A stretch of DNA of 32,000 nt, from the NCBI RefSeq assembly GCF_000020385.1, contig NC_010814.1, positions 2,250,001-2,282,000 of the forward strand, given 5' to 3'. Below, piece by piece: positions 154-29,752 of this stretch. Position numbers and translations under genes: made by a program. Below the pieces are notes generated by a model. The model was not told the origin of the DNA, did no database searches, and was given only the letters and a program-made list of their open reading frames with translations. Numbering within the stretch: the first letter of the stretch is position 1; the number at the start of each line of letters is the position of its first letter. The stretch comes from Trichlorobacter lovleyi SZ. Its GTDB lineage: Bacteria > Desulfobacterota > Desulfuromonadia > Geobacterales > Pseudopelobacteraceae.

Positions 154-1164
154 TCAACGAGCCATACCGGCCACTGTCCCGGCACAGGCGTCATAGACCA
201 GTCCTTGCAGAACCGTTGCTGCTGAGGAGCCGGTCTTGACCCCGACATCCCCCCGGTACAACCGCTCAAACAGGGCCTCCAGCTCAGTCACCGGATATTT
301 TTTAGCCTGGGTGACCTGTTCACCCAGAAAAAACTGGTGGATCTTGAGTTGCTTGCCGATATCAGCAGGGGGCATCTTCTGATCCAGCAGTTCCCGGATC
401 CGCCAGATCCTGCGAAAATGACTGGCCAGAGCCCCCAGGATCATGACCGCCTCTTCACCATTTTGCAACATGGCTTGCAAGGTAGCCAATGCCTTTGCCA
501 GATTCTTTTCCCCCATGAATCTGGCCAGCTCAAAGGCGGTAAATGACTTGCTTTGGCTGACGATTGCCTTGACATCCTCAACCCCGATCACCGGACGACT
601 ACCAACATACAGGGCAGCCTTCTCAATCTGTGAAACCAGCTCCTGTAGATTGTTACCCACCATGAAGCCCAGCATCTCGGCTCCTGCCCCATCTATCTTC
701 TTGCCATGCACCGCAGCCTCAGCATTGATAAACGGCCCCAGTTTATTGTCATACAGCTTCTTAAATTCCAGCGTACCGGGCTGTTTCTTGAGCTCGGAAA
801 AAAATTTGCGGCGCAGATCAGGTTTGGCAGCCAGGAACAGCAGGCAGGTTTCCGGACAGGGATTGGCCAGATAGGGCAGCAGCCCCTCCTGGGTTGCTGC
901 CGGCAGCTTGTCAGCCTGCCTGACCACCACCACCCGGCGTTCTGCAAACATCGGTAATGTCTGGGAGGTATCAAGGATCTCGGTCCCTTTGCAATCCGCA
1001 CCGTAATAGATGTTCAGGTTAAAATCTTTCATGGCAGGATCAACCGCCTTCTCCATGACACGACGACCAGCCCGCTCAACCAGAAACGGCTCTTCACCAT
1101 AAAAGAAATAGACCGCTGAAAAGCTGCCGGTCTGAAGTTGTTTTTCAAGTTCCTGTTCAGTCAT
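154..1164 (-). CDS. holA: DNA polymerase III delta subunit
   Basis: The 336-aa ORF has the size and sequence pattern of HolA (N-terminal ...AVYFFYGEEPFL..., helical C-terminal domains). It sits downstream of leuS-lptE, as in many Proteobacteria. ATG 1164 shares one base with the stop of the upstream gene (TGATG). Confidence 0.85.
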   Translation of the reverse strand: MTEQELEKQLQTGSFSAVYFFYGEEPFLVERAGRRVMEKAVDPAMKDFNLNIYYGADCKGTEILDTSQTLPMFAERRVVVVRQADKLPAATQEGLLPYLANPCPETCLLFLAAKPDLRRKFFSELKKQPGTLEFKKLYDNKLGPFINAEAAVHGKKIDGAGAEMLGFMVGNNLQELVSQIEKAALYVGSRPVIGVEDVKAIVSQSKSFTAFELARFMGEKNLAKALATLQAMLQNGEEAVMILGALASHFRRIWRIRELLDQKMPPADIGKQLKIHQFFLGEQVTQAKKYPVTELEALFERLYRGDVGVKTGSSAATVLQGLVYDACAGTVAGMAR

Positions 1165-2342
1165 CAGGTTACCTGTTTCTGTGTACAGACCTTCACAACC
1201 CTGTCCCGTCCTGCATTTTTCGCTGCATAGAGCGCATTATCAACCTGCTGGATAAATTCATCGATACTGCACCCGGCGCAAAACGCCCCCACCCCGAAAC
1301 TCATGGTCAAATGAATCGGTTGAGTATCCCAGACAATCTCTTTCCCGCGCACTGCAGCAGCAAGTTTTTCAGCCACTATCACAGCCTGCTCAAGCGAGGT
1401 CTCTGGCAACAGAACCATGAATTCTTCACCGCCCCAGCGGGCGCACACATCCTCTGAGCGCAGGTTGTCTTTCAGCTGAGTTCCAATCTGCCGCAGCACC
1501 CGGTCTCCGGCCAGATGGCCAAAGGTATCGTTTACCTGTTTGAAGAGATCCAGGTCACCCAGAATCAGTGAAAAGGTCTTGTTGTGGCGTTCTGAACGTT
1601 TTAGCTCAACCTCAAGCTGGTTCAGCATCTCCATCCGGTTGGCAAGTCCGGTCAGAATATCGGTCCTGACCATCAGCTCAAGACGCATATTCAGATCCTG
1701 CAACTGAAACTGATAGGAATCACTGATAGTGACAATCTTGCTAAAACGCCTCAACAGCTTGGCATAGCGGCTGACAATTTTTTCCAGTTCCGGGGTCAAC
1801 GGATCGCCAACAGTTGAGATCCTTTCCAGCAGCTCTTTCATTTCACGCAGTGGTTCATCTTCCGGCGCTGCGGCTTTCTGACGTTCACTCTGCAGTTGCG
1901 ACAGAACAGCAGCAGGCTGTCCCCGTCCTTCCAGCTTGCTGTAGGTTGTTTTGACACAGTCCGGACAGATGCCGTGACTGAACATGATATCCACATGACT
2001 GCTGAAATAGGTTTCCAGCCGCTGCCAGTAATTATCATCGGTCCGTATCTTGTGACAGTACATACAGATCGGTAATGCCACCTCACTCAATTGGCGCAGC
2101 TTGATATCGGATTGTTCCTGCTTCCGGGACAATTCCTTCAGTTGTTGCTGGTACGAGTCACTGATGGCAATGGTCTTATACAACTGGTGATGGAGTTTGT
2201 TAAAGCTGTCAGACAGCACAAAATACTCAGCGAGCAGCTCTGTTCTGTCTTCCGGAGGATTGGCCAGAACCTGTGCCGTGCGTTGCAGTGCCGGATCCGA
2301 CTGTTCTGATTTTTGCGATGTTTTTTTTCTGGCCCTGATCAT
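1164..2342 (-). CDS. siaD: SiaD-like diguanylate cyclase: coiled-coil/Cys-His-rich N-terminal region plus GGDEF domain
   Basis: The C-terminal GGDEF domain has an intact active site (RWGGEEFMVLL). A canonical RxxD I-site (RSED) lies 5 residues upstream. It is the last gene of a SiaA/SiaB/SiaC-type set, and its start overlaps the siaC stop (ATGA). Confidence 0.85.
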   Translation of the reverse strand: MIRARKKTSQKSEQSDPALQRTAQVLANPPEDRTELLAEYFVLSDSFNKLHHQLYKTIAISDSYQQQLKELSRKQEQSDIKLRQLSEVALPICMYCHKIRTDDNYWQRLETYFSSHVDIMFSHGICPDCVKTTYSKLEGRGQPAAVLSQLQSERQKAAAPEDEPLREMKELLERISTVGDPLTPELEKIVSRYAKLLRRFSKIVTISDSYQFQLQDLNMRLELMVRTDILTGLANRMEMLNQLEVELKRSERHNKTFSLILGDLDLFKQVNDTFGHLAGDRVLRQIGTQLKDNLRSEDVCARWGGEEFMVLLPETSLEQAVIVAEKLAAAVRGKEIVWDTQPIHLTMSFGVGAFCAGCSIDEFIQQVDNALYAAKNAGRDRVVKVCTQKQVT

Positions 2343-2716
2343 TTGTTAAGTGCCGCTATTTCAAAGGGAAAGCTGACCTCTTCGCAAAACTCCTCAGCCA
2401 GTTCAAAAGAACGGGGATTCTCAAGGTCATAATACCAGGTGATCGAGACATTGGCACTCCGCCCATAGGCATCTTCCATGATATCCAGCAGATCAAGCAT
2501 GCATTTGGTGCTGCTGCTGTTCATATAGGTAATGGTGATGGCAATGGTCAGCTGCCGGTTGTCCTGCAGATACTGTTTCAGCCACGCCAGCACCGGCGCA
2601 TAAAAGGCAAAGGAGTTCTCGGGGTAGGACTCACCGGAAATACGCAGTTTTTTTACCTCAGGATCAAAACTGATCAACGGCGTTGAAGCGGTCTGAGGAA
2701 TATCAAGATGTGCCAT
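2339..2716 (-). CDS. siaC: SiaC-family regulatory phosphoprotein (DUF1987)
   Basis: The 125-aa product has the DUF1987 pattern: ...ISGESYPENSFAFYAPVLAWLKQY... and ...ITYMNSSSTKCMLDLLDIME. It lies between SiaB-like and SiaD-like genes. Confidence 0.8.
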   Translation of the reverse strand: MAHLDIPQTASTPLISFDPEVKKLRISGESYPENSFAFYAPVLAWLKQYLQDNRQLTIAITITYMNSSSTKCMLDLLDIMEDAYGRSANVSITWYYDLENPRSFELAEEFCEEVSFPFEIAALNK

Positions 2717-2731
2717 AAATGTTCTCCACTG

Positions 2732-3262
2732 CTAAACAAAAGCGCTAAGACTGAAAAAGACATAGGTTTCATCAATAGTGCGCACAGAACAGTGCATCGG
2801 CGCCGAAGAATGGCGGGCAATTTCAAGCAATCCGAGTCCTGCCCCCAAGGCTCCGGGTTGGACCTCGCGTCGCATCTGCTCCTTGTAGCTGCGCTTCAGC
2901 TCTTCAGGCGTCATGGCGTTAATCTCGTTGATCCGGGCACAGAGCAGTGCTGCATCTTCCTGCAGGACCATGTTGCCGGAAGAGACCATATAGCCCTCAT
3001 TCCAGCGGGCGATGGTAATGATCGAGGCGGCCGTATCACCATGGCCAAGTTCACGTAGCGCAAGGTAATTACGCACATTCTGGGCAAGTTCGATATAGAC
3101 GGCAAAGACATCCAGGACCGCAGCTTTTGCGATGTTTTCCGCTGCCAGGTGGTTGCGCAGCGCGGTCCCGATCTCCTCAATGATACTGTGGGAAAAAGGA
3201 CCGTTAAAACACATCATCATGCCGGACTCATCAAACTGCTTTCTCAGGTTGTACAGATCCAT
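2732..3262 (-). CDS. siaB: SiaB-family protein kinase (GHKL/anti-sigma-like ATPase fold)
   Basis: The 176-aa product has the N-terminal pattern typical of SiaB-family proteins (...MMMCFNGPFSHSIIEEIGTALRNHL...VFAVYIELAQNVRNY...). It lies between the PP2C phosphatase gene and the DUF1987 gene. Confidence 0.7.
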   Translation of the reverse strand: MDLYNLRKQFDESGMMMCFNGPFSHSIIEEIGTALRNHLAAENIAKAAVLDVFAVYIELAQNVRNYLALRELGHGDTAASIITIARWNEGYMVSSGNMVLQEDAALLCARINEINAMTPEELKRSYKEQMRREVQPGALGAGLGLLEIARHSSAPMHCSVRTIDETYVFFSLSAFV

Positions 3263-3280
3263 GGCAACTCCTCTCCAGGA

Positions 3281-5281
3281 TTACAGACGGAAGGCCAACA
3301 CGGTAATATCATCACGCTGTTTTCTCGTACCACGCCAGACATCCATCCGCTGTGCAAAAACAGTAAACAGACGCTGCAGATCAAGGCCACGGTTTTCAGA
3401 CAGCAGCTGACGGAAACGGGCAGTTCCGAACCCATAGCCTTTGGGACCACCACCTTCATCCAGCAAACCGTCAGTGGTCAGGTAACAGGCTACTGCACTG
3501 TGTAATGTCAGCTGATGGTTCTGATAAACAAACTGCAGATCACTGCCGCTATACCCCACCCGCTGCCGATCGCCCTTGATTTCAGACACCTGGTGTTCAT
3601 CGGTATAATACAAGGAGATCCCTGCGCCGGCAAAGGTCAAAGACTGCTGCTCAAGATCGATACAGCACAGACCGATATCAAGCCCGGCATCCACCAGACT
3701 CTCTCCATCCTGCCGTAATCGCAGGGTTTCCTGCAGCAACCGGTTTGCCTCCTGTAAAATCCGTCCCGGATCATCAGCGCAGAGAGTATCCACGATATGG
3801 TTCAGCACAGAGTTGACCGTCATGGTCATAAAGGCCCCCGGCACCCCGTGGCCGGTACAATCCAGCACTGCCAGCAACACCTTGCCATTGCCAGACTCAT
3901 GCAGCCAGTACAGATCGCCACCAACCAGGTCGCATGGCTGATACAGAACCGACCAATCGGCAAAAATCCGGTCAAACCGTTGCGGATCCGGCAAAATAGC
4001 AGCCTGCAGTATCCTGGCGTACTGAAGGCTTTCCATGATTCTGGACTGGGACGCCTCAAGCAGCTGATTGGCGTCGGTCAGTTCCCGGGTCCGCTGCAGT
4101 ACCCGCTCTTCAAGATGTGCGGTATGCTCCCGTACCGTGGCGGCCATGCTATTGAAGCTTTGAGTCAGTCGACCGATTTCATCCCTGTGCAGCACCGGTA
4201 GTGCTATGTCATAGCGTCCCTCGGCCACCTGGCCGGCTGCCCCGGTTAAAAGATTGAGCGGTCTCAGGACCATACGGTTTATCATATACCCGATCACCGT
4301 GATGACGGCCAGAAGTGAGAACAGACTGGCCAGGATAATCGGCAGGAATGTGGCTGTCTGCATCACATGGGAAAAGTCAACCAGTGCGATGGTGTACCAG
4401 CCGATCTGGGGCATGTAGGAAACTGCTGCAAATGACTGGTGCCCGTTAATCCTGACTGGAAAGGCAGCCACTTTTCTTCGGGGTTGTCCTGCGAGATTCT
4501 CAAGCTCTTTTTTTAGCTGTTCCGCCTCTGCCGGCTGTTCAAGCAGCTGAAAGATGGTGGTCCTTTTATCAGAATCCTGTTCAAGAGCATTGCGCTCAAC
4601 CAGCGCCTTGTCGTGGTGAGCTTGGATAATGCCGCGACGGTCAATCAGGATGACAGCAGTTCCCGGTTCATCCGTCAGCACGATCTCCTGCAGAAACTCA
4701 GTCAGATCGATGCCGGTACCGCCAATGCCGATTTTATCGCCCCTGCTGTCACGGATAATGGCATTGATCCAGACCTTGGTCTGGCGAATCAGGGCATCAT
4801 AATTCAGGTGAACCTCAAAGGTATCCACCCTGCGTAATGCATCAAAAAACCAGGAGTCTGAAGAATTATCACGACTGAGTCGACTGCTTCTGGGTTGTTC
4901 CGGCGGCATGGAGCGGTCTGCATTGTAATAACTTGCATCAGCAGCACGGGCAATAAAATAGCTCTTGTCACGGAAAAAGCGGCGGTAACTTTCCAGCTGC
5001 TGCAGGGCGGCTTTTTTAGCGGCAGAACTTTGCCCCGGAGCAACCCAGGCCCTGATCAAATCATCATCAACCAGCTTGAGCGACAGTGCCACCTCGCGGT
5101 CAATGATTGAGAGGATCTTGTTTTTGTCATGCAGGGCCTTACTGGTGGCAGACTGCAAGGCAAACGCAGTAATAATACGGGAGGTCACCCCGGAAAAAAA
5201 AGAGGAGACCGCAACTGCGGCAATCAGAAAAACTGCCGAAGTAATCAGGATAAATTTTGTTCTGAGCGTCAGTTGCTGCAT
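3281..5281 (-). CDS. siaA: SiaA-like membrane sensor with HAMP and C-terminal PP2C (SpoIIE-type) Ser/Thr phosphatase
   Basis: The product is 666 aa. Two hydrophobic segments (FILITSAVFLIAAVAVSSFF and FLPIILASLFSLLAVITVIGYMI) flank a periplasmic region of about 280 aa. A HAMP-like segment follows (...RDEIGRLTQSFNSMA...). The C-terminus is SpoIIE/PP2C-like (...GGDLYW...LAVLDCTGHGVPGAF...DDITVLAFRL). Confidence 0.8.
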   Translation of the reverse strand: MQQLTLRTKFILITSAVFLIAAVAVSSFFSGVTSRIITAFALQSATSKALHDKNKILSIIDREVALSLKLVDDDLIRAWVAPGQSSAAKKAALQQLESYRRFFRDKSYFIARAADASYYNADRSMPPEQPRSSRLSRDNSSDSWFFDALRRVDTFEVHLNYDALIRQTKVWINAIIRDSRGDKIGIGGTGIDLTEFLQEIVLTDEPGTAVILIDRRGIIQAHHDKALVERNALEQDSDKRTTIFQLLEQPAEAEQLKKELENLAGQPRRKVAAFPVRINGHQSFAAVSYMPQIGWYTIALVDFSHVMQTATFLPIILASLFSLLAVITVIGYMINRMVLRPLNLLTGAAGQVAEGRYDIALPVLHRDEIGRLTQSFNSMAATVREHTAHLEERVLQRTRELTDANQLLEASQSRIMESLQYARILQAAILPDPQRFDRIFADWSVLYQPCDLVGGDLYWLHESGNGKVLLAVLDCTGHGVPGAFMTMTVNSVLNHIVDTLCADDPGRILQEANRLLQETLRLRQDGESLVDAGLDIGLCCIDLEQQSLTFAGAGISLYYTDEHQVSEIKGDRQRVGYSGSDLQFVYQNHQLTLHSAVACYLTTDGLLDEGGGPKGYGFGTARFRQLLSENRGLDLQRLFTVFAQRMDVWRGTRKQRDDITVLAFRL

Positions 5282-8337: not shown

Positions 8338-9396
8338 TTACGGATTACCAAATCCGCCACATGCAAGTATTGCCTGACTGATGCCCGGTAACGGCACGAC
8401 GCGGTCAACGCATCCGGTTGCCACAGCCTCGCGGGGCATGCCATAGACCACCGCACTATCCTCTGATTCCGCCAGTACCTGGCCACCCCGTTCCTTTACT
8501 GCAACCACCCCTTTGCTGCCGTCATTGCCCATACCGGTCAGTACCACCGCCAGCATCCGGCTGCCGTACAGCGGGGCACAGGATGTAAACAGCACATCAG
8601 CAGAGGGGACATAACGATCACTGGCTTCCGGCGGTTTTACCCTTGCGCGAATGCCGGCACCAACCTCTTCAAGCAACAGATTACAACCACCAGGGGCAAT
8701 CAGTGCCAGACCCGGTTCAACCGGATCCCCATCATGTGCCTCACGTACCGTAAAGGGTGAGGTGCGGTTCAGGCGGTCAGCAAAGGCCCGGGTAAACCCG
8801 TGGGGCATATGCTGGGCAACCACCACGGCAAAAGGGTAGCTTTGATCAAAAGAACTGAAAATCGATTGCAGGGCCGGTGGTCCGCCGGTTGACGAGGCAA
8901 TAGCCACCAGTTCAACGGCACGTTTGCCGGCTGACCGCAGTGATTTGCGCGGTTTGTCCACCTCCGGCGCCGGTGGCGTCTGACGAGCCTTTTTACTGAG
9001 CAGGCTTACCATGATCTGTTTCACCTTCCACTTCAGATCCTGTTCAATACTGCTCAGTTCACGAGCATGGCCCTGCATCGGTTTGGCAACAAAATCAAGC
9101 GCCCCCATTTCAAGGGCACGAAAGACCTTATCAGCATCGGACAGGGCGCTGATGACCAGTACCGGCAGACTGAAACGGTTGGTTAGAATCCTCAGCAGCG
9201 TAAATCCATCCATACGCGGCATCTCAAGATCAAGTGTCACCAGGTCAGGCTTGAGTGAGATAGCCTGACGAATCCCTTCCTCACCATCCACCGCATAGCC
9301 GACTACCTCAACCCCGGGCATTCCTTCCAGCATCTTGCTGATACTGCGACGGCTGTAGGCTGAATCATCCACCACCAGTACCCGGATCGGCTTCAT
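8338..9396 (-). CDS. cheB: Chemotaxis response regulator protein-glutamate methylesterase CheB
   Basis: The N-terminal REC domain has the motif LVTLDLEMPRMDG. The C-terminal methylesterase domain has ASSTGGP, AQHMPHGF and TGMGNDG. The start shares one base with the cheR stop (TGATG). Confidence 0.93.
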   Translation of the reverse strand: MKPIRVLVVDDSAYSRRSISKMLEGMPGVEVVGYAVDGEEGIRQAISLKPDLVTLDLEMPRMDGFTLLRILTNRFSLPVLVISALSDADKVFRALEMGALDFVAKPMQGHARELSSIEQDLKWKVKQIMVSLLSKKARQTPPAPEVDKPRKSLRSAGKRAVELVAIASSTGGPPALQSIFSSFDQSYPFAVVVAQHMPHGFTRAFADRLNRTSPFTVREAHDGDPVEPGLALIAPGGCNLLLEEVGAGIRARVKPPEASDRYVPSADVLFTSCAPLYGSRMLAVVLTGMGNDGSKGVVAVKERGGQVLAESEDSAVVYGMPREAVATGCVDRVVPLPGISQAILACGGFGNP

Positions 9397-10274
9397 CAGG
9401 CCCCTCCAAATGTTGAGCCGACCGGCTTCTGATACACCATGTCGTTCTTGAAATGGCGCAAATTAAACAAGGTCGTGATATTCATCAGTGACTCAGAGTG
9501 CCCCAACAACAGGTAACCGGAATCCCGCAGAACCTGATAAAAAGATTCAACCACCTTTTTTTTGGCCGTTTGATCAAAATAAATGATGACATTGCGACAA
9601 AAAATCAGGTCAAAGCTACCCAGCATCTTCATCCTGGTACTGTCCAGCAGGTTCAGATGGCTGATGGTAACCAGCTTTCTGACATTGTCCAGAACCCGGA
9701 AGCCACCTTCCGGTTGCGGGGCAAAATACCTGTTTTTATAATAATCATCGGTTGAACGGAATGCCGATGGTCCATAGATGCCGCGGCGGGCATGCTGCAG
9801 GACACGCTGGCTGATATCGGTTCCAACAATCTCGATCGACCAGTCCTTCAGACACTCCATTTCAAGCAGCAGCATGGCAATGGTATACGGTTCTTCACCG
9901 GTTGAACAGCCGGCAGACCAGACCCGGATACGGTGATTGTGCTCCCGCGTCCCCCTGGCAGCGCAGATCTCAGGAACAATCTCATCGGTAAAGGCCTTCA
10001 GCTGATATTCCTCACGGAAAAAATAGGTTTCGTTGGTGGTAAGCAGGTCCATGATCTCTTCCAGTTCCTGATCGCGTTTGCGGTTAAAGCGCAACAACTG
10101 GTAGTATTCACGGAATGATTTCAGCTGATGAACAGCCAGACGACGGCTGAGTCTTTTTTCCAGCAGGTAGGAATTCTGATCGTCAAACCAGAGGCCGCAG
10201 TGACTGTAAACCAGGTCACGCAGCAACCGGAATTCTTCTTCAGACATCAGTATTTCCGGTTCAAAAGGACACAT
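9396..10274 (-). CDS. cheR: Chemotaxis protein methyltransferase CheR
   Basis: The product has the CheR N-terminal helical domain and a SAM-dependent methyltransferase domain (...RVWSAGCSTGEEPYTIAMLL...IFCRNVIIYFD...). The track start (GTG 10331) overlaps the HEAT gene, so I prefer ATG 10274, one nt after the HEAT stop. ATG 10247 is also possible. Confidence 0.9.
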   Translation of the reverse strand: MCPFEPEILMSEEEFRLLRDLVYSHCGLWFDDQNSYLLEKRLSRRLAVHQLKSFREYYQLLRFNRKRDQELEEIMDLLTTNETYFFREEYQLKAFTDEIVPEICAARGTREHNHRIRVWSAGCSTGEEPYTIAMLLLEMECLKDWSIEIVGTDISQRVLQHARRGIYGPSAFRSTDDYYKNRYFAPQPEGGFRVLDNVRKLVTISHLNLLDSTRMKMLGSFDLIFCRNVIIYFDQTAKKKVVESFYQVLRDSGYLLLGHSESLMNITTLFNLRHFKNDMVYQKPVGSTFGGA

Positions 10275-10275
10275 C

Positions 10276-12282
10276 TCAGTCTGCGCCCAGTTGCGACCTG
10301 ATCTCGGCCCTGACCAGATCATTATCTTCACGATCCAGAGCCATCTGCAGCAATGTCATACGATCTTCAGCAGGCAATGCACTGCTGGCCCTGACAGCAG
10401 TGATTCTCACATCCCAGTCCTGGTGGCAGATAATATGATTAAACCAGGGCAGCAGCAATGACAGGTCGTAACGGTGCAACAACTCGATCGCTCCCTTCAG
10501 CACCTCACCGTCATGCCGTCCAAGATCCCTTGAAACAGCCTGCAACGCCATGACTGACCCGATCTGCTCAAACGCTTCCAGGCAGGCCAGCTGCACCACC
10601 TCATCTCCCTGTTCCCAGAGTTGCAGCAGATCTGGCAGTGCGGCCTCACCGGCCAGCTGTACCAGACTACGCAAGGCAGCGGCCTGTACCCAGGCATCAC
10701 TGTCATGCAGAGACAGTCGAAGCGGTGCAATGGCGGCATCATCCCGGCAGTCTCCCAATGCCTCGGCAGCAGCAATCCGGACATCAGGTTCTTCATCGAC
10801 CAACGCCATCATCAAGTGGGAGCATCCCTCTGCAGGCCTCAGTTTTCCGGCAGCCCGTGCAGCAGATTCACGCACCGAGGCATTTTCATCTTTCAGCAAC
10901 CGGGCCAGCTGCTCACCATCATGCACGGCGGCAAAGAGCAAGGCGGCCCCTCTGCGCTGTTCAGGGTCCGGCGCAGATGCCAGCTGTTTTGCGGCCGTTC
11001 CAATTACGTGGCGATCAATATCAGCGTAACGGAGCAGTGCAGCCAGTGCTGCCTCCCGCACCGAGGCATCCTCATCATTCAAAAGCTCTGCCACCTGTGC
11101 GGGCAACTCCGGATCGCTCAACTTGGCAGAGGCATAGACTGCAGCGCTGCGTACCCGGGCCGCAGCATCCGCAAGTGCGCAGCGGATAACATCTGCCCCT
11201 TCCGGCGCCCCGCTGTTCCCTAAAAATCGGCACAGGGCAGCCCGTTCATCAATCGATTCTGTTGCAGCAAAACGTGTATTGGCGGCTCTGACCGCTGCAA
11301 GCCCCAGCTGCCGTAATGCCGATTCTGCTGCTGCCGTCAGACGTTCATCCGCCAGAGCGGAAAACAACACCTCAAGACCGCGCGGATCGGCCAGTATGCC
11401 CAGAATAGCCACGACAGCCTCATTCACCGCCTGGTTACCGGGGGTAAACGAAGCGATCAACTGCTCGACCAGTCCTTGGTCAGCCAGGAGCTGCAATCGT
11501 GCTTTGGCCTCTGACTGCCCGGCAGCATCGAGGCGCTGGAGTACCTGGACCAACGAGCTGACAGCAGCCTGGCGGACACTGGGAAGGTGTGACAACACGC
11601 CTTCCAGCAGCAATGCAACGGCATCACTATCGCTACCTATTTTGCCAAGGCACTCAAATACGGCCCGCCGCAGAAGCTCCTGCCCGGCAAGCTGCTTGAC
11701 CACCGCCGGTAATGGTCCGGCAACACCGATCCGTCCCAGGGCCGCCAGCGCATTGAAACGAAAAAAGGATTCCTGATTCCGCTCAAGATGCCGTAACAAT
11801 TCCGGAACAGATTCAGCGTTACCAGCAACCCCCAATCCTTCTGCCGCCGCTGCAGCCACGTTGCTATCCGGATCTGACAGGGCACGGGTCAGACCGGCAA
11901 GTGCCTCTGCACCGCCAAGAGCACCAAGGGCATCCACCACCAGCTTGCGCAGGTCATGGTCCGCATCGTCCAGATAACCCAGCAGGATCGGCACAACCCT
12001 GACGCCACATCTGACCAGAAGCTCGGCAGTTGCATTGCGCAGCCCGGCATTTTCCTCATCCCGCAACAGGTCGATCAGTTGATGAATATCATCCTGATCA
12101 GGCCGGGCTGCCAGCACGACCTCCACGGCCTGCTTACGCACACGCCAGCTTTCGTCACCAAGGGCAGCAAAAAGAATGGCCCTGCTTTGCTGCAGAGGCA
12201 GATGACGCTGTTCCTGCACAGCCCGGTAGCGTATTTCTTCGTCATGGTCTGCAGCCATCCGGTGGCTATCAGGCATCGCCAT
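10276..12282 (-). CDS. HEAT-repeat (PBS-lyase-type) protein, about 668 aa
   Basis: It contains roughly 20 recurrences of a module of about 31 aa, D-x-(D/E)-x-x-V-R-x-x-A-x-x-A-L. Examples are DEDASVREAALAALLRY, DENASVRESAARAAGKL and DEEPDVRIAAAEALGDC. The track start is TTG 12390. I prefer ATG 12282, which is preceded by AGGAGG with a 9-nt spacer and overlaps the cheW end by 14 nt. Confidence 0.8.
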   Translation of the reverse strand: MAMPDSHRMAADHDEEIRYRAVQEQRHLPLQQSRAILFAALGDESWRVRKQAVEVVLAARPDQDDIHQLIDLLRDEENAGLRNATAELLVRCGVRVVPILLGYLDDADHDLRKLVVDALGALGGAEALAGLTRALSDPDSNVAAAAAEGLGVAGNAESVPELLRHLERNQESFFRFNALAALGRIGVAGPLPAVVKQLAGQELLRRAVFECLGKIGSDSDAVALLLEGVLSHLPSVRQAAVSSLVQVLQRLDAAGQSEAKARLQLLADQGLVEQLIASFTPGNQAVNEAVVAILGILADPRGLEVLFSALADERLTAAAESALRQLGLAAVRAANTRFAATESIDERAALCRFLGNSGAPEGADVIRCALADAAARVRSAAVYASAKLSDPELPAQVAELLNDEDASVREAALAALLRYADIDRHVIGTAAKQLASAPDPEQRRGAALLFAAVHDGEQLARLLKDENASVRESAARAAGKLRPAEGCSHLMMALVDEEPDVRIAAAEALGDCRDDAAIAPLRLSLHDSDAWVQAAALRSLVQLAGEAALPDLLQLWEQGDEVVQLACLEAFEQIGSVMALQAVSRDLGRHDGEVLKGAIELLHRYDLSLLLPWFNHIICHQDWDVRITAVRASSALPAEDRMTLLQMALDREDNDLVRAEIRSQLGAD

Positions 12283-12754
12283 GCAGAACTTCCTCCTGAA
12301 TCTGTCCCTGATAATGTCGTCCTGAAGGGGTAAAGAGGGAATCAATGTCGAGCACCAGATAGAGCCGCTCATTGCAGAGACAGACTGCAACCAGAAATTC
12401 AGCCCCTACCCCTTCGATCATATCGGGTGGCGGTGTCAGATCACGCACCGGCACCGTCACCACTTCATCAAGATCATCAACCGCAAGGGCAACCTGCCGC
12501 CCTGCCACCGATACAATCATCAGCTTGCCCGGTCCGCCGGGGCGGGGAGGCATCCCGAAACGGGCACGCAGATTCATGACCGGAATAACCTGTCCGCGCA
12601 GATTGATCATGCCGTCAAGGCTGCTGTTCTGCAGTGGAAACCCCGCAAGCTTCTGCGGGATCACAATTTCCTTGATCCGCATGATATCAATGGCGAACAG
12701 GTTATCACCCATAAGAAAACCTGCCAGTTGCAGCTCCTGAATAGCAGACTCCAT
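12269..12754 (-). CDS. cheW: Chemotaxis coupling protein CheW
   Basis: It is a single CheW domain (...LFAIDIMRIKEIV...GMINLRGQVIPVMNLR...). The track start is TTG 12784. I prefer ATG 12754, one nt after the upstream stop. Confidence 0.88.
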   Translation of the reverse strand: MESAIQELQLAGFLMGDNLFAIDIMRIKEIVIPQKLAGFPLQNSSLDGMINLRGQVIPVMNLRARFGMPPRPGGPGKLMIVSVAGRQVALAVDDLDEVVTVPVRDLTPPPDMIEGVGAEFLVAVCLCNERLYLVLDIDSLFTPSGRHYQGQIQEEVLHGDA

Positions 12755-12755
12755 G

Positions 12756-13517
12756 CTAGCCGACCTCGCCGAGGGCAGTATCAACGACCTTGCAGATATC
12801 CAGAATGATCAGCATCCGTTTTCCGGTTCTGCCGATTCCCGACACAAACTCACGGGCCACTCCTTCAAGCATCGAGGGTGTGGCTTCACGGTCTGTTGCA
12901 GCAATCTTGACAACATCGGTCACCCGGTCAACCCGTAACCCATGCAGACTGTCACCACAGCGGACAATAATAATCCGTTCCTGACCGGCGTCGTAGTCAA
13001 GTGACATACCAAGCCGCTTGCGCATGGTAAAAACCGGCACGATCACCCCGCGCAGGGAAAGCACACCATCCACAAAGCCCGGTGTCCTGGGCACCTCGGT
13101 CAGTTCCCGGGACTTGATGATCTCCTTGATCTCCATGATGTTGATGCCGTACTCCTCATCACCCAAGCGGAAGCAGAGGAACTCTTCAAACCGCTCCTCA
13201 GACGCAGCGGTCTGATGTTCCTGCTCAGTCTCCGGCAGCACCGTGCCGTTCGTGGAACGATCATGCTCCCTGCCGGCGAGAATAACCGCCAACGGATTAA
13301 AATGAGCTGCGGCAGGGACGGCACGAGCCATGGCCGGTCCGGGGAATGAGACCGGCGCAGCTTGCTGAGCAGCGGAGTCATCGGATAACGTCAAGGCGGG
13401 CGGCACAACATGATCGGGCTGCAGGACGACCGGTTCCGGCAATGGAGTACTGACCTCCTCCGTTGCCCCGGGTGCCCCTTCCTGCCGCGCCTTGTTGCGA
13501 ATCTTGGCCAGTTCCAT
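12756..13517 (-). CDS. CheW-domain protein with a Pro/Ala-rich N-terminal extension of about 115 aa
   Basis: The C-terminal CheW domain has ...YGINIMEIKEIIK...GVLSLRGVIVPVFTMR.... The N-terminus is low-complexity (MELAKIRNKARQEG...PLPEPVVLQPDHVVPPAL...). The start shares one base with the upstream stop (TGATG). Confidence 0.8.
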   Translation of the reverse strand: MELAKIRNKARQEGAPGATEEVSTPLPEPVVLQPDHVVPPALTLSDDSAAQQAAPVSFPGPAMARAVPAAAHFNPLAVILAGREHDRSTNGTVLPETEQEHQTAASEERFEEFLCFRLGDEEYGINIMEIKEIIKSRELTEVPRTPGFVDGVLSLRGVIVPVFTMRKRLGMSLDYDAGQERIIIVRCGDSLHGLRVDRVTDVVKIAATDREATPSMLEGVAREFVSGIGRTGKRMLIILDICKVVDTALGEVG

Positions 13518-14317
13518 CAGAGCGTTACCTCATCACGAACTTCCTGAATAATTGAAGCATCTATCACAGCAGCATCACTGCCGTACGCCACCAGCAACGC
13601 ATTGGTGGCCACAGCATTGATCCTGCGCGGAACCCCGGCTGACAACTCGTAGATTGCCTGTACGGCATCCGGCGTAAAAAGCCCCGGAACGCCACCACTT
13701 GCCACTATTCTGAAATCCAGGTATTCCATGGTTTCCTCAAGGGAAAGCGGCTGCAGATGAAAATGCAGGGAGATACGCTGTCTGAGCGGTTCCATCGGTT
13801 GATATCTGAGCAGGCTGCGCAGTTCGGGTTGCCCCATGATCAGGACACTGATCAGGTTATGATCATCCATCTGGTAGTTGGTCAACAGGCGGATCTCGTC
13901 AAAGACTTCCAGCTCGGTTATGGTCTGGGCCTCGTCAATCACCAGCACCGGGCAGAGGTTGTCCCGGTACAGATCATACAGCCTGCCGGTAATCTGGCGC
14001 AACAGATCATCCTTGCTACGGGCAGGTTGTTCAATCTCAAGTCCATGGGCCATGGTGCGCAAAAATTCAAGTGCCCCCATGCGGGGATTAAAGATCAGGA
14101 CAAAGCGGTAACCTGTGCCGCAACGATCCATCAGCGCCCTGGACAGGGTGGTCTTGCCGCAGCCGACATCACCGGTCAAAAGGGCAATCTCCCGTTCTTC
14201 GACTGCATATTCCAGCCTGGCCAATGCCTCTTCATGTCCTTTGGACAGGAACAGAAAACGCGGGTCAGGCGTCTTGCCAAACGGCTTTTCCCTCAGGCCG
14301 AAATACTCCTTGTACAT
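13517..14317 (-). CDS. ExeA/GspA/MshM-like AAA+ ATPase (ATPase module only)
   Basis: The 266-aa product begins MYKEYFGLREKPF, as ExeA-family proteins do. It has Walker A (GDVGCGKTT) and Walker B (VLVIDEAQ). It has no C-terminal peptidoglycan-binding region. Confidence 0.75.
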   Translation of the reverse strand: MYKEYFGLREKPFGKTPDPRFLFLSKGHEEALARLEYAVEEREIALLTGDVGCGKTTLSRALMDRCGTGYRFVLIFNPRMGALEFLRTMAHGLEIEQPARSKDDLLRQITGRLYDLYRDNLCPVLVIDEAQTITELEVFDEIRLLTNYQMDDHNLISVLIMGQPELRSLLRYQPMEPLRQRISLHFHLQPLSLEETMEYLDFRIVASGGVPGLFTPDAVQAIYELSAGVPRRINAVATNALLVAYGSDAAVIDASIIQEVRDEVTL

Positions 14318-14320
14318 GGC

Positions 14321-16426
14321 CTAGGCCCCGCTGCCGCGCATGGTTTCAGCAATGATGCCGCCAGCGTCCAGCACCAGGATGGTGCGTTGGTCCCCAAGGT
14401 CCGCTGCACCCGAGATGCCACGCAATGTTCTGAATGCCGGTCCCAGAGGCTTGATAACAATATCCTGCTGCCCCAAAAGATCATCCACCACAATTCCCAG
14501 ACGTTTCTCCGCTGATCCGACCACCACGACATACTGTTCTCCGGGGTTAATCCCGACCCGTTCAACCCTGAAGAGCCGTTCCAGCCGCAGCAGCGGCAGG
14601 GTCTGCTCGCGCAGATTGATCACTTCCTTGCCTTCAACGGTCTTGATATCAGCAGGTTCCAGGATCAGAGATTCAACCACCGAGGTGATCGGTATTGCGT
14701 AGGTGCGTCCGGCGCAGAAGATAATCAGGGCCTTGATGATGGCCAGGGTGATCGGCAGTATGATCGTAAAACGGGACCCCTGCCCCAACCTGGTTTCAAT
14801 ATCAACCATGCCGGATACAGCGGCAATATTGTTGCGCACCACATCCATGCCGACACCGCGGCCGGAGATGTCGGTGATCGTGTCTGCCGTAGAAAAACCG
14901 GGCATAAAGATCAGGTCAAGTGCCTCGCGGTCTGACATGCCGTTAATATCCTGCACCAACCCCTTGGACAGGGCCTTTTGCTTGACCTTTTCAAGGTCAA
15001 TGCCGGCGCCATCGTCCTCCACTTCAATCACAACATGGTTGCCCTTCTGAAAAGAGGAAAGACGGACCGTACCCCGCTCATCCTTGCCGGCAGCCAGACG
15101 CCGTTCCGGCGACTCGATACCATGGTCAATGGCATTCCGGATGATATGCATCAACGGGTCGGCAATATCCTCCACAATCAGCTTGTCAAGCTCCGTCTCG
15201 GCGCCGTACAGCTTCAGCTCGATCTTCTTGCCCTGCTCACGGGAGATCTTGCGCACAATCCGGGACATCTTTTCATACAGCTGTCCCACCGGAATCATGC
15301 GGATATCCATGACCCCTTTTTGCAGGTCGGTCAGGCGCCGTTCAAGGCCCTTGGCGGCCTTGCCCAGATCAATGGCCATCCGGGAAAACCCTTCGGTCCG
15401 CATCCGGTTGGCAATGGATGAAATGGAGGAGTGGGCCAGGACCAGTTCCCCTACAATATTCATCAGTTCATCCAGCTTACCGATATCTACCCGTACGGTA
15501 CGGCTCATGCTCTTGGCTGAAAAGGCCTCATCCGGGCTGGCGCCGGGCAGTTCCGAAGCAGGCAGTACCACGGGAGTATCTGCTGTTTCCGATGCGGAGG
15601 CAGTGACAGCAACCGGCTGAAAATCAGCCCGGTCCGGTAACGCTGCCGCCTTTGCATCTCCCTTGGGAGCTCCCGCCAGCAGGATGGATACGTCAAGATG
15701 CTTCAGAAGCGCTGAAAGTTCCTGTTCATTACGGTCCGTTCCTGTCAACAGATCAAAATCGATATGGGTTTCGATCCGCTCGCCAACACTTGGCAGGGTA
15801 CTGATGACCTCACCACATCCCTTCAGGATATCGGTCAGCTCAGCCAGCCCCTGATCAAAGGTCGTCAGCTCAAAGGAGGCATGCACCACATAAATATGGC
15901 GCCCCTTGCTGCAGTTTTCTTTCAGGCGGTGTTCTTCGTACTCGGTCAGCGCCCCCATCAATGAGTCTGAAAGGCCAAGTTGCTCAAGCAAGGGAGCGGC
16001 AGTGACCGGTTCAGCAGGGTTAAGGCAGGCTGCAATGGCAGATGCATGGGCGGACGCGGCAGCCTGATGCTGGTCAAGGGTACCATCAACACAGGCGCGC
16101 AGCAGTGTCGTAAGCAGTTCAGCAGATGAAAACAGCAGTTCCAGCACCGCAGGGGTAAGTGAAATCTTCCCCATCCGTAACCAGTCAAGCAGGTTCTCGG
16201 CATGATGGGCGGTCTCTGCTATCATGCCAAAGCCGAACATGCCTGCCAGTCCCTTCAGAGAGTGGGCACCACGAAAAATGGCGTTCAGCAGATCAGGCTC
16301 CCAGGCCCCCTTCTCAGCCATATCAGCCAGGTCGGCCAGTTGCGTCCCGAGCTCTTCGACAATTTCCTCGGCTTCCGCCAGAAAATCACGTGCTGCGTCA
16401 GATGATGGGGGGGAGGACGAACTCAT
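14321..16426 (-). CDS. cheA: Chemotaxis histidine kinase CheA
   Basis: The 701-aa product has an Hpt domain with phospho-His context (FRGAHSLKGLAG). It also has a dimerisation region, an HATPase_c domain (...NAIDHGIE...DDGAGID...GRGVGMDVV...) and a C-terminal CheW-like P5 domain. The start overlaps the cheY stop (ATGA). Confidence 0.95.
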   Translation of the reverse strand: MSSSSPPSSDAARDFLAEAEEIVEELGTQLADLADMAEKGAWEPDLLNAIFRGAHSLKGLAGMFGFGMIAETAHHAENLLDWLRMGKISLTPAVLELLFSSAELLTTLLRACVDGTLDQHQAAASAHASAIAACLNPAEPVTAAPLLEQLGLSDSLMGALTEYEEHRLKENCSKGRHIYVVHASFELTTFDQGLAELTDILKGCGEVISTLPSVGERIETHIDFDLLTGTDRNEQELSALLKHLDVSILLAGAPKGDAKAAALPDRADFQPVAVTASASETADTPVVLPASELPGASPDEAFSAKSMSRTVRVDIGKLDELMNIVGELVLAHSSISSIANRMRTEGFSRMAIDLGKAAKGLERRLTDLQKGVMDIRMIPVGQLYEKMSRIVRKISREQGKKIELKLYGAETELDKLIVEDIADPLMHIIRNAIDHGIESPERRLAAGKDERGTVRLSSFQKGNHVVIEVEDDGAGIDLEKVKQKALSKGLVQDINGMSDREALDLIFMPGFSTADTITDISGRGVGMDVVRNNIAAVSGMVDIETRLGQGSRFTIILPITLAIIKALIIFCAGRTYAIPITSVVESLILEPADIKTVEGKEVINLREQTLPLLRLERLFRVERVGINPGEQYVVVVGSAEKRLGIVVDDLLGQQDIVIKPLGPAFRTLRGISGAADLGDQRTILVLDAGGIIAETMRGSGA

Positions 16427-16791
16427 AGAAACCTTTTAACTATCTCAAGAAGTTGTTCCGGCTGAAATGGTTTTACCAGATACTCATTGGCCCCCAGGGA
16501 AAGCCCCTTTTCAATATCTTTACGGCTTCCTTCGGTGGAGATGACAACGACCGGCAGATCCTTATACATCGGGTTGCTACGAATGAAGCTGAGCAGCTCA
16601 AGCCCATTGATATCCGGCATATTGATATCGGTCAGAACCAGGTCAACCTGCTCACGGGGCAGCATACGCAATGCCTCAAAACCATTTGGAGCCTGCACAG
16701 TAGAAATAGTTCCCAATGTTTCCAGGGTGGAAACCAGCAGTGAACGCATGGCCGCCGAATCATCAACAATAAGAATGGTGAAGGTCTTCAT
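16423..16791 (-). CDS. cheY: CheY-like single-domain response regulator
   Basis: The REC domain has ILIVDD, VLTDINMPDINGLE and YLVKPF. The track start 16809 is a TTG lying within the Shine-Dalgarno GGAGG. I prefer ATG 16791. Confidence 0.9.
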   Translation of the reverse strand: MKTFTILIVDDSAAMRSLLVSTLETLGTISTVQAPNGFEALRMLPREQVDLVLTDINMPDINGLELLSFIRSNPMYKDLPVVVISTEGSRKDIEKGLSLGANEYLVKPFQPEQLLEIVKRFL

Positions 16792-16830
16792 GAATACAGG
16801 TTCCTCCAAACCTCTGACCCGTGAAAGTCG

Positions 16831-17829
16831 CTAGCCCTGCAAGTGCAAAATATCTTTGAGGTTGCCCAGAAGAGAAGCAAACTGTTCTCCCTTGGTATCA
16901 CCGCGGCGTGGTTTGATCAGAAAGGGACAGCCCAGACCGGCAAGCTCGGAGGCAGCCTCGGCATGATGAAAATCGGAAACAGCAGCAAGCCTGATGCCGG
17001 CAAAATTGCGATGTAAGAGCTGGATCAGCTCCAGTCCCCCCAGCACACCGCTACCATCCATCTTTGGCATGATCAGATCAACCAGCACAAACGGGCAGGA
17101 ACCTGAACGGAACAGGGCATCAACCTTTACCAAGGCCTCTTCGCTTCTGCTGAATACAGCCACGTCAAACCAACGCTGCAGTTCATCAGCCAGCGCCTCT
17201 GCCATGCTGCTGTCATCATCAACAATCACCATGGCAGGCAGCGATGCTTCAGGTTCCAACACAGGGGGTTCCAGAATTTCTTCAACCGGCTGGCCTTCAT
17301 CAGCCCCAAGCTGTTGTTGAACACGCACGGCTTCGGCAACCAGTTGATCAGGAGAACTCTTTCCCAGTTCCAGAATCAGTTGTACCGGGTCAAGATAGGC
17401 GGCATCCACGGTTTCAACATCTCGGGCAGCACAGTCAAAACTCCCCTCAGTCCAGGCAAACAGGGTCATCAGTACATTGCTGATCTGTTCCCGCACAGTC
17501 TGTTCAATCAGCTGCAGATCAACATGAAAACGATGGTGAAGGATCGTGCCGATCCGTTCACGGAACTGCTCCTGCTGCTGGATAGCCAGGGCCTGCTGCA
17601 CCATCTCGGGTGTGGCAGCACCATTACGGATCAGCAGTTCTCCAAGGCTTTGCTGAAAGCCGGTGGAGGTGACTCTGACCAACAGGCCGTCTCGAAACTG
17701 CAGCACCGCCTCACGCCCTCTGCTTTTCAGGGTCAGAATGCCGGTGCGACGACTGACCCCCACAATCTGCAGGATTTCGTCAAGTCCCAGTTCTTCCAGC
17801 TTTCCATGCAGTCCGCTCTGCATCTGCAC
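16831..17829 (-). CDS. PATAN (DUF4388) domain plus receiver-domain response regulator
   Basis: The N-terminal DUF4388/PatA-N pattern is present (LGLDEILQIVGVSRRTGILTLKSRGREAVLQFRDGLLV). The C-terminal REC has MVIVDDD, FVLVDLIMPKMDG and FLIKP. The track start is GTG 17856. AGGAG (17841-17837) lies 7 nt upstream of GTG 17829, which favours that start; ATG 17823 is also possible. Confidence 0.75.
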   Translation of the reverse strand: MQMQSGLHGKLEELGLDEILQIVGVSRRTGILTLKSRGREAVLQFRDGLLVRVTSTGFQQSLGELLIRNGAATPEMVQQALAIQQQEQFRERIGTILHHRFHVDLQLIEQTVREQISNVLMTLFAWTEGSFDCAARDVETVDAAYLDPVQLILELGKSSPDQLVAEAVRVQQQLGADEGQPVEEILEPPVLEPEASLPAMVIVDDDSSMAEALADELQRWFDVAVFSRSEEALVKVDALFRSGSCPFVLVDLIMPKMDGSGVLGGLELIQLLHRNFAGIRLAAVSDFHHAEAASELAGLGCPFLIKPRRGDTKGEQFASLLGNLKDILHLQG

Positions 17830-17907
17830 GACAGTTCTCCTTACCGGTAATACCACGACAAACAGGGCAACAATGATAAACCACAGAATAGTCTGAGTAA
17901 AGCCATA

Positions 17908-24510: not shown

Positions 24511-24774
24511 ATGGAGACAACTCTGTCCAGCAAAGGACAAATCGTTATTCCTCTGCAAATAAGAAATCTGCATGGCTGGCGGCCGGGGGCCTCCTTTACC
24601 ATTATTGACAACGAAGACTCCTTGATTCTTCAACCGGTCCAGACAAAAACAACAACCAAACTGGAAGATGTAATTGGATGCGCCGGATATCAGGGAAAAA
24701 AGAAAAGCCAGGCAGAGATGGACGCAGGAATACTTGAGGAAGCCAAAAGACGGGTGGCTGAATGGTCTCGGTAG
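24511..24774 (+). CDS. vapB: AbrB/SpoVT-family antitoxin (VapB-like)
   Basis: The 87-aa product has an N-terminal swapped-hairpin pattern (TLSSKGQIVIPLQIRNLHGWRPGASFTI). A GGAGGGG Shine-Dalgarno lies 4 nt upstream. It overlaps the downstream PIN gene by 13 nt. Confidence 0.75.
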   Translation: METTLSSKGQIVIPLQIRNLHGWRPGASFTIIDNEDSLILQPVQTKTTTKLEDVIGCAGYQGKKKSQAEMDAGILEEAKRRVAEWSR

Positions 24775-25154
24775 ATACCAATCTTGTTGTCAGGCTACTG
24801 GTCAATGACGACCCGGCGCAAACGAATAAGGTTGCAGCACTGTTCACGGCTGAAAAAATATTCATCGCCAAAACAGTTGTTCTTGAAACGGAATGGATTT
24901 TGCGAGGGGTCTATAACCTTGACCGTAACACAACAAATAGCGCACTACGAAAACTATTATCCCTGGAACAGGTCATTGTGGAGGATGAAAGCATACTTTT
25001 TGATGCGCTGGACAACCATCTGCAAGGGGTGGATTTTGCAGATGCCCTCCACCTGTCTTCAAGTCATCGGGCAGCAACATTTGCCACCTTTGATGCAAAA
25101 TTCAAATCAACTGCTAAAAAGCTGTCTTTGAAACCAACCGTCATTACTCCCTAG
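24762..25154 (+). CDS. vapC: PIN-domain ribonuclease toxin (VapC-like)
   Basis: The 130-aa product carries the PIN acidic residues in context: VDTN (D5), LETEW, DFADALH and TFDAKF. It is arranged as a classic overlapping two-gene TA pair. Confidence 0.8.
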   Translation: MVSVDTNLVVRLLVNDDPAQTNKVAALFTAEKIFIAKTVVLETEWILRGVYNLDRNTTNSALRKLLSLEQVIVEDESILFDALDNHLQGVDFADALHLSSSHRAATFATFDAKFKSTAKKLSLKPTVITP

Positions 25155-29612: not shown

Positions 29613-29685
29613 GGCAACCACCTCCGCATAAGTTGCCATGAATCTTAACATGCTGTAGTGACCAAATATGTCGTTTTGCCAATCT

Positions 29686-29708
29686 GCGGAAGATTGGCGC
29701 TAATCAGG
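29686..29708. repeat. IS right terminal inverted repeat GCGGAAGATTGGCGCTAATCAGG
   Basis: It is the exact reverse complement of 28648-28670. It overlaps a local hairpin: GCCAATCT (29678-29685), loop GCGGA, AGATTGGC (29691-29698). Confidence 0.92.
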
Positions 29709-29729: not shown

Positions 29730-29752
29730 CAGATGATTACCAACTAACTAAC

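Follow-up and report, generated by a model that had tools for sequence, protein, structure and literature searches.

A chemosensory operon without a receptor gene in Trichlorobacter lovleyi SZ, probably a reduced form of the beta-group/Esn system

Chemosensory gene clusters that comprise cheA, cheW, cheR and cheB but no mcp gene, encoding a methyl-accepting chemotaxis protein (MCP), were described as the beta group by Tran et al. (2008; PMC2577667), who listed G. lovleyi among the carriers, reported beta clusters in Myxococcota as well, and mentioned unpublished knockouts of the G. sulfurreducens representative, cluster 5, that alter the extracellular matrix. In G. sulfurreducens, the locus was later named Esn (Chan et al., 2017; PMC5585712). 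It includes the CheW protein EsnB (GSU2220), an ATPase (GSU2221) and the CheA protein EsnC (GSU2222), and insertions in the three genes all lower growth on electrodes, the ATPase gene having a transposon-sequencing (Tn-seq) score of -2.1 (PMC5585712). EsnA (GSU1704), an unlinked GAF-domain MCP of class 40H, was found by two-hybrid assay to bind both EsnB and EsnC; EsnD, a diguanylate-cyclase (REC-GGDEF) response regulator, is an output of the system. Mutants with clean deletions of esnA, esnB, esnC or esnD no longer colonise electrodes but still reduce Fe(III) oxide (PMC5585712). Later papers take the Esn/beta system as established (PMC8235581, PMC13194489). The subject here is a nine-gene che operon on the minus strand of a 32,000-nt stretch of T. 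lovleyi SZ (contig NC_010814.1, positions 2,250,001 to 2,282,000; the whole stretch is hereafter called the window, and coordinates are those of the window unless another locus is named). This operon is probably the already described beta-group/Esn system in a reduced, Trichlorobacter form, of the alternative cellular function (ACF) kind rather than a motility system, with a receptor acting in trans and with an ATPase and a HEAT-repeat protein as integral parts.

Identity of the nine-gene operon

The identification comes from gene order and collinear sequence identity. Two loci of the genus Geobacter, L081 (AP028967.1) and L082 (AP028061.1) in the numbering of this analysis, carry in the same order genes for Der, PatA_N-REC, CheY, CheA, AAA_22, CheW (252 amino acids, aa), CheY, CheW (158 aa), Zn-ribbon-REC, HEAT, CheR, CheB, GAF and CheY, and the 13 genes of this Geobacter locus fit the numbering GSU2224 down to GSU2212. 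The proteins of the window are 39-68% identical to their counterparts there and collinear over their full length, except for PATAN-REC, which aligns over the PATAN and REC domains only. Against L081, identity reaches 68% for CheR, 61% for CheA over its full length, 61% for CheY (compared with the first CheY), 50% for the short CheW (with the 158-aa CheW), 44% for the long CheW (with the 252-aa CheW) and 39% for the HEAT protein. Given this order and this collinearity, the long CheW of the window is the counterpart of EsnB, and its CheA that of EsnC.

An earlier note on this DNA had presented the cluster as new, with the reservation that it should not map to a system already characterised; it does map to the beta-group/Esn locus, already studied, and the claim of novelty fails. 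The statement, in the same note, that such clusters had been noticed in Geobacter comparative genomics was correct (Tran et al., 2008; PMC2577667), and the non-flagellar output that it suggested is probable.

Between positions 8338 and 17829 of the minus strand, nine ORFs (open reading frames) follow each other head to tail and bear the domains listed below (Pfam), together with a candidate promoter:

16831-17829, minus strand (ORF open to 17856): PATAN (DUF4388)-REC response regulator, 332 aa, GTG start at 17829 (Pfam, Shine-Dalgarno context)
16423-16791, minus strand (ORF to 16809): single-domain CheY with canonical DD/D/T/K residues (Pfam REC, E 6e-31)
14321-16426, minus strand: CheA, EsnC/GSU2222 position, with Hpt, H-kinase_dim, HATPase_c and CheW/P5 domains and no receiver domain (Pfam)
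13517-14317, minus strand: AAA_22/ExeA-type ATPase, GSU2221 position, 266 aa, ATPase module only (Pfam)
12756-13517, minus strand: long CheW, EsnB/GSU2220 position, 253 aa, CheW domain after a 110-aa N-terminal extension (Pfam)
12269-12754, minus strand (ORF to 12784): short, second CheW, 161 aa (Pfam)
10276-12282, minus strand (ORF to 12390): HEAT (PBS-lyase type) alpha-solenoid protein, 668 aa, eight HEAT_2 stretches (Pfam)
9396-10274, minus strand (ORF to 10331): CheR methyltransferase, CheR_N and CheR domains (Pfam)
8338-9396, minus strand: CheB methylesterase with receiver domain and Ser/His/Asp motifs (Pfam; NCBIfam CheB, 364 bits, above the cut-off)
17873-17901, minus strand: weak candidate promoter, a sigma-70-like hexamer pair in the 78-nt spacer between der and the PATAN gene (consensus scan)

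Starts were picked from Shine-Dalgarno context and orthologue alignment (PATAN 17829, CheY 16791, short CheW 12754, HEAT 12282, CheR 10274). With these, junctions range from a 14-nt overlap to a 39-nt gap, and the earlier description of nine chained genes with this content and this range of junctions stands. The PATAN domain is matched with E 1e-21; the REC domain of the same protein scores 29.5 bits, slightly below the cut-off, yet its DD...D...S...K acceptor residues are present. Intact residues are also found in CheA (the phosphorylatable His), in the Asp pockets of CheY and PATAN-REC, in CheB (Ser/His/Asp) and in the ATPase (Walker A and Walker B). The operon is flanked by housekeeping genes, glnS-era-der upstream and leuS-lptE downstream, in a window of 54% G+C. 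Scans of the region for sigma-70 promoters and terminators gave match counts not above the shuffled expectation, and a sigma-54 search (TGGCAC-N5-TTGC, at most 2 mismatches) gave 39 matches versus 47 expected, none of them in the der/PATAN spacer; the operon may be co-transcribed with der. Rfam and tRNA scans of the window returned nothing, and hence no cyclic di-GMP (c-di-GMP) or cyclic GMP-AMP (cGAMP) riboswitch there.

Conservation and the missing receptor

A scan of species-representative genomes with the ATPase found at least 587 stretches encoding relatives, of which 80 loci were kept and compared; their labels are nearly all Geobacter, Geobacteraceae or Desulfuromonadales, one being Dongiaceae and a few only generic. 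The best genome match for the ATPase, at 95% identity, is Trichlorobacter thiogenes, and the protein has thousands of close relatives, all of about 266 aa. When the window proteins were searched against the 80 loci by tblastn, the identical gene order was recovered at the der...leuS site in essentially every one. CheA-ATPase adjacency was counted in 78 of the 80 loci and HEAT-CheR adjacency in 69, the uncounted loci including truncated contigs and four loci without the HEAT gene. Wherever enough flanking sequence was available (63 loci), CheA, the ATPase, both CheWs, CheR and CheB were all present, and the HEAT protein in 59; a PATAN orthologue could be identified in 66 of the 80 when matches of short coverage were accepted. 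No protein of the cluster is better conserved than the ATPase, whose median identity across loci is 68%; CheR (63%), CheA (62%), CheB (61%), PATAN (44%) and HEAT (37%) follow.

Beyond the Trichlorobacter clade, the cluster has additional parts: its PATAN-REC is 550-580 aa long and ends in a C-terminal GAF-like domain (GAF_2-like in L010), and it includes a second CheY and a Zn-ribbon-REC, as well as a GAF protein and a third CheY after CheB. Since these extra genes and the GAF-like domain of PATAN-REC are missing from it, the cluster of the window represents a reduced, nine-gene version.

Three further observations concern individual loci. In L019, L023, L024 and L044, the HEAT gene has been cleanly lost, about 150 nt being left between the short cheW and cheR, while the ATPase, CheA, the CheWs, CheR and CheB are kept; L019 and L024 are additionally devoid of PATAN-REC. 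Several Geobacter/Geobacteraceae loci carry a gene for a large multihaem c-type cytochrome between the che cluster and leuS (L014, 16464-18638; L081, 18704-20804), which is absent from the window. In L081, cheB (16388-17328) is broken into two ORFs, one for the receiver (167 aa) and one for the methylesterase (162 aa); that of L082 (16388-17503) is intact and encodes 371 aa.

The earlier note had found no receptor gene in cis, and this holds. No MCP was found in the 32-kb window by Pfam searches of every ORF of at least 120 aa, by a scan for the hairpin-tip motif (a regular expression tolerating 9 substitutions) or by searching the six-frame ORFs with an MCP profile built from five MCPs, and none lies within about 10 kb of the cluster in 79 of the 80 loci. 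The sole MCP among them, in L008, is an unrelated soluble PAS-MCP encoded on the opposite strand.

A second lineage with the same core was reached through an ATPase profile search of protein-cluster representatives and then through one short distant relative, P0246. Its four loci (L085-L088), of 68-74% G+C, encode in order CheY, CheA, AAA_22, CheW (280-311 aa), MCP, HEAT (788-790 aa), CheR, CheB, PATAN-REC and a GAF protein, and one relative of their ATPase carries the label of a betaproteobacterial metagenome-assembled genome. Like the window, these sister operons thus hold CheY, CheA, the AAA_22 ATPase, a long CheW, HEAT, CheR, CheB and PATAN-REC, and the proteins are 46% (ATPase), 44% (CheA), 44% (CheR), 43% (CheY) and 40% (CheB) identical between the two lineages, the HEAT proteins sharing 31% identity over more than 600 collinear residues. 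Unlike the window, they have a cis-encoded transmembrane HAMP-MCP (HAMP and MCPsignal domains, 761-813 aa), whose gene lies between those of CheW and the HEAT protein; their PATAN-REC gene comes after cheB, they have a single CheW, and they occupy a different site, next to lepA.

This second lineage bears directly on the role of the two unusual genes. Because the sister operon holds the ATPase, the HEAT protein and an MCP together, the first two are ancient, integral parts of the system and no substitute for a receptor, and the earlier suggestion that they occupy the receptor's usual place fails. The receptor-less layout of Geobacterales is a derived one, in which the receptor gene would have moved or been recruited elsewhere; such a layout fits an EsnA acting in trans. 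Of the MCPs in the three Geobacter genomes that Tran et al. analysed (PMC2577667), 46-71% belong to class 40H, the class of EsnA, and every Desulfuromonas genome with a beta cluster has EsnA homologues (40H), plus 1-3 '64H' MCPs (PMC8235581). CheR and CheB, which the earlier note had left without a substrate, have a plausible one in trans, as class 40H MCPs are abundant and 79 of the 80 loci lack an MCP in cis.

One could still imagine a receptor-independent module, with the HEAT protein and/or the ATPase taking over the scaffold role of the MCP in activating CheA, and with CheR and CheB acting on a non-MCP substrate. The lack of a cognate cis MCP across the Geobacterales loci and the HEAT gene adjoining cheR/cheB in every lineage are in line with it. 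It is nonetheless very improbable, given the co-occurrence of MCP, ATPase and HEAT genes in the sister operon, the binding of EsnA to EsnB and EsnC and their common phenotype (PMC5585712), the retention of CheA, CheW, CheR and CheB in the four loci without HEAT, and the presence of ordinary receptor-coupling domains in both CheWs and in CheA (P5).

The synteny in 80 loci and in the second lineage also rules out a chance juxtaposition of the genes, and the co-occurrence of the ATPase and HEAT genes with the che core, as claimed earlier, is borne out in both. That the two genes are functionally unrelated passengers, fixed in the operon, is close to refuted: no biochemical link is known, and HEAT shows little conservation (median identity 37%) and is missing from four loci, but the CheA-ATPase-CheW adjacency (0-3 nt) is preserved between lineages whose ATPases share only 46% identity and whose G+C contents lie 17 points apart, no other protein of the cluster is as conserved as the ATPase, and the HEAT-CheR-CheB order is the same in both lineages. 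An integral role for both proteins in a beta-group/Esn system with a trans-encoded receptor thus remains the preferred reading.

The ATPase, the long CheW and the HEAT protein

The ATPase has a Walker A motif GDVGCGKTT and a Walker B motif VLVIDEAQ, and its catalytic motifs are invariant across loci. The NCBIfam model TIGR03015 covers residues 1-264 of its 266 (E 1e-67), with a score of 228 bits that is below the 324.5 cut-off; ExeA-like proteins of about 550-600 aa, for their part, score about 230 bits against the ATPase profile. It thus resembles ExeA/GspA, MshM and the XrtA/PEP-CTERM ATPase (TIGR03015) in its full-length AAA_22 module with Walker A and B, and is a paralogue of the last over its whole length. 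Unlike ExeA/GspA, however, it has only 266 aa, without a transmembrane or peptidoglycan-binding part and without a gspB/exeB partner; it falls below the TIGR03015 cut-off, and its neighbours are che genes rather than msh or xrtA. As the membrane and peptidoglycan-binding parts of ExeA are missing, the likeness to ExeA does not justify a link to secretins or pili, and the pilus or secretion output that the earlier note had drawn from the likeness to ExeA/MshM is weak, with a 266-aa module only and no gspB or pil genes nearby. The predicted structure (predicted local distance difference test, pLDDT, 73) retrieves with Foldseek only generic initiator/loader AAA+ proteins (Cdc6/ORC, MuB, TnsC, RuvB; TM-score about 0.5), and the only sequence match in the PDB is MuB (E 6e-4). 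In this model, the fold resembles those of Cdc6/ORC, MuB and TnsC, ATP-dependent oligomerising 'matchmakers', a resemblance that gives no functional resolution.

The ATPase gene is invariably found with cheA on one side and the long cheW on the other, at junctions of 0-3 nt, and its translation appears to be coupled to that of both. In the N-terminal part of the long CheW (13188-13517, minus strand), a basic helix, MELAKIRNKAR, is joined by a Pro/Ala-rich linker to a PLAVILAGR motif, ahead of the CheW domain; the motifs M..IA.IR.KA. in the helix and PLA.IL.GR before the CheW domain are conserved in EsnB-type CheWs (also in L081, 10861-11200). This N-terminus looks like a tethered docking peptide. 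Because its gene is fixed between cheA and the long cheW and because the tether motifs of CheW are conserved, we propose that the ATPase may belong to the CheA-CheW core as an oligomeric subunit that assembles or remodels it in an ATP-dependent manner, possibly docking on the CheW tether. We know of no chemosensory array that needs an AAA+ partner.

The HEAT protein is a generic solenoid of 31-residue PBS-type repeats. A single-sequence AlphaFold2 model is all-helical, with 39 helices and low confidence in residues 210-390, and the sequence matches in the PDB are only to the artificial alphaRep, generic HEAT proteins and MTH187. Where present, its gene directly precedes cheR-cheB in both lineages, and this position favours a role as a scaffold of the adaptation branch, which would parallel the part played by the TPR domain in CheR-TPR proteins, fusions that occur in ACF clusters (PMC3447774). 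Alternatively, it could be an effector that binds phosphorylated CheY (CheY~P), like Cpc7: in M. xanthus, the HEAT-type protein Cpc7, encoded in the che region, binds a CheY (Cpc7-CheY7; PMC11514114), and the haloarchaeal HEAT_PBS protein OE2401F of H. salinarum binds CheY, CheD and CheC2 (PMC2666748). In either case, the protein would be accessory rather than essential, since four loci have lost it and kept the rest.

Regarding the literature on this gene, our search found no paper naming GSU2216, the number that corresponds to the HEAT position, and a 2021 review on Geobacter chemotaxis without mention of the cluster. A HEAT-like repeat protein, KN400_2162, which may or may not be the HEAT protein of the GSU2216 position, was mutated in two of three G. 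sulfurreducens anode lines evolved for 17 years (PMC13194489).

Output, proposed pathway and comparison with known systems

A PATAN-REC protein at the head of a che operon calls to mind the Pix/Tax systems of cyanobacteria. In Synechocystis, Pix consists of PixG (PATAN-REC), PixH (CheY), PixI (CheW), PixJ (an MCP encoded in cis) and PixL (a hybrid CheA-REC). To our knowledge, cyanobacterial Tax/Pix clusters have no CheR or CheB, and Pix has neither the ATPase nor the HEAT protein. The likeness to the PixG/PixH pair pointed out in the earlier note is real insofar as PATAN-REC and a single-domain CheY head the operon ahead of CheA, as they do in Synechocystis, and the output is probably likewise non-flagellar; it does not extend to an MCP in the cluster or to a CheA-REC hybrid, both absent from the window, nor is the position of PATAN-REC conserved.

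The operon could then be a Pix-like system steering type IV pili, in which CheA would phosphorylate PATAN-REC and CheY, and PATAN would dock on the pilus motor (PilB/PilC), as PATAN response regulators do in Synechocystis according to a preprint (bioRxiv 10.1101/2021.06.11.447907). Retention of PATAN-REC in the distant sister lineage is compatible with this, as is the fact that pilC and pilS insertions, too, lower electrode growth in G. sulfurreducens (PMC5585712). A system of this kind is, however, unlikely: neither the window nor the 10-kb flanks of the 80 loci contain pil genes, CheA is without a C-terminal receiver domain, CheR and CheB are present, PATAN-REC comes after CheB in the sister lineage, and genetics in G. 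sulfurreducens indicates a GGDEF response regulator as the output (PMC5585712). Pili are possible as a second, additional output of the beta-group/Esn system.

The PATAN-REC of the window is a short form, lacking the C-terminal GAF-like domain of its 550-580-aa orthologues. Its PATAN domain contains an alpha-helical insertion (17480-17645, minus strand; aa 71-124) that matches positions 2-53 of the 53 of the MshE-type motif NF053729 (E 3e-6), at 26.8 bits versus a cut-off of 38. The MshEN motif is made of two tandem 24-mers, RLGxx(L/V/I)(L/V/I)xxG(L/V/I)(L/V/I)xxxxLxxxLxxQ, with a 5-residue spacer (Wang et al., 2016; PMC5013675). The consensus of 66 PATAN orthologues reads LG..LI..GVI....L...L..Q and RLG..LV...GV....I...V..Q, and thereby retains most key positions of the two 24-mers; relative to MshEN, its first residue is S instead of R, its spacer has 7 residues and one residue is inserted. 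The copy of the window is more degenerate, and the PATAN of the sister lineage has neither insertion nor motif. If the motif is functional in Geobacter, c-di-GMP made by EsnD would feed back on the pathway through PATAN, which is speculative.

The pathway can be outlined by analogy, its receptor, adaptation and phosphotransfer steps being inferred from the genetics of G. sulfurreducens. One or more trans-encoded MCPs of the EsnA type would nucleate a complex with CheA, the ATPase and the two CheWs, the long one tethered, and these receptors would be methylated and demethylated by CheR and CheB. CheA would then phosphorylate CheY and PATAN-REC, encoded in the cluster, as well as an unlinked REC-GGDEF protein of the EsnD type, and this would set the level of c-di-GMP and matrix or surface colonisation. 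The ATPase would assemble or remodel the CheA-CheW core, while HEAT would scaffold the adaptation branch or bind CheY~P, two roles suggested by anatomy only. A more specific version may be entertained tentatively, although we consider it less than probable: CheA, the AAA_22 ATPase and the tethered CheW would form an ancient kinase core in which the ATPase is obligatory for assembling, gating or dismantling the array, HEAT would be a platform for CheR/CheB on long receptors, and the PATAN insertion of Geobacterales would be a c-di-GMP site closing a feedback from EsnD. None of these three mechanisms has been described; each fits the observed patterns of conservation.

Several points weigh against equating the operon with Esn in this way. 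The link to the GSU locus tags passes through the gene order in a Geobacter-genus chromosome that carries the ATPase labelled 'MULTISPECIES [Geobacter]', read together with the table of PMC5585712, and partners of the EsnA and EsnD types are attributed to T. lovleyi by analogy with G. sulfurreducens. The wiring of the window may differ from that of the Geobacter Esn system, given the five elements missing from it. The cis MCPs of the sister lineage (L085, 12663-14978; L086, 11747-14032; L088, 11854-14295) have about 250 residues per hairpin arm, i.e., about 70 heptads in total, and are far longer than, and thus mismatched to, the 40H class of EsnA. As for the two integral proteins, the Tn-seq defect of GSU2221 is consistent with a core role of the ATPase, but a polar effect on esnB is an alternative explanation, and HEAT is dispensable in 4 of the 63 loci.

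If the identification holds, the operon is a conserved and previously catalogued feature of the order rather than a peculiarity of this window. In G. sulfurreducens, the Esn pathway decides the commitment to an electrode-attached conductive biofilm, which makes it relevant to bioelectrochemical systems and to the sensing of solid electron acceptors by Geobacterales. The ATPase and the HEAT protein are the evident next targets, the most conserved protein of the pathway being an uncharacterised AAA+ ATPase and both proteins travelling with the che core across distant lineages.

Elsewhere in the window, a SiaABCD-like c-di-GMP module (dCache-HAMP-SpoIIE phosphatase, DUF6272 SiaB-like protein, SiaC and GGDEF cyclase; 1164-5281, minus strand) is inserted between lptE and holA; these two genes adjoin each other in T. 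thiogenes (L001), while L003 also has the SiaA-like gene at this place. An IS1595-family transposase gene (28653-29651, minus strand) overlaps the 3' end of metH (25199-28708) and is followed by a low-GC (46-49%), ORF-poor stretch (29700-32000), the two being probably a mobile-element remnant. A lone PIN-domain ORF (24762-25154, plus strand) is found between the MTHFR gene and metH; no search was made for an antitoxin partner.

Among the systems described so far, two groups resemble the HEAT part of the operon. M. xanthus Che7/Cpc7 and H. salinarum OE2401F are, by description, also PBS-lyase-type HEAT proteins encoded in a che region, but the window additionally has the AAA_22 ATPase and PATAN-REC, and its HEAT protein is much longer and always linked to cheR. 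CheR-TPR fusions such as FrzF likewise tie an alpha-solenoid to CheR in a non-motility pathway; in the window, the repeat type differs and the solenoid is a separate polypeptide, its gene abutting cheR. The closest system is G. sulfurreducens cluster 5/Esn (GSU2212-GSU2224), with which the window shares the core order PATAN-REC, CheY, CheA, ATPase, long CheW, short CheW, HEAT, CheR and CheB, the site next to der and the absence of an mcp gene from the cluster; it differs from the Geobacter Esn cluster by the lack of five elements, namely the second and third CheY, the Zn-ribbon-REC, the GAF protein and the GAF-like C-terminus of PATAN-REC.

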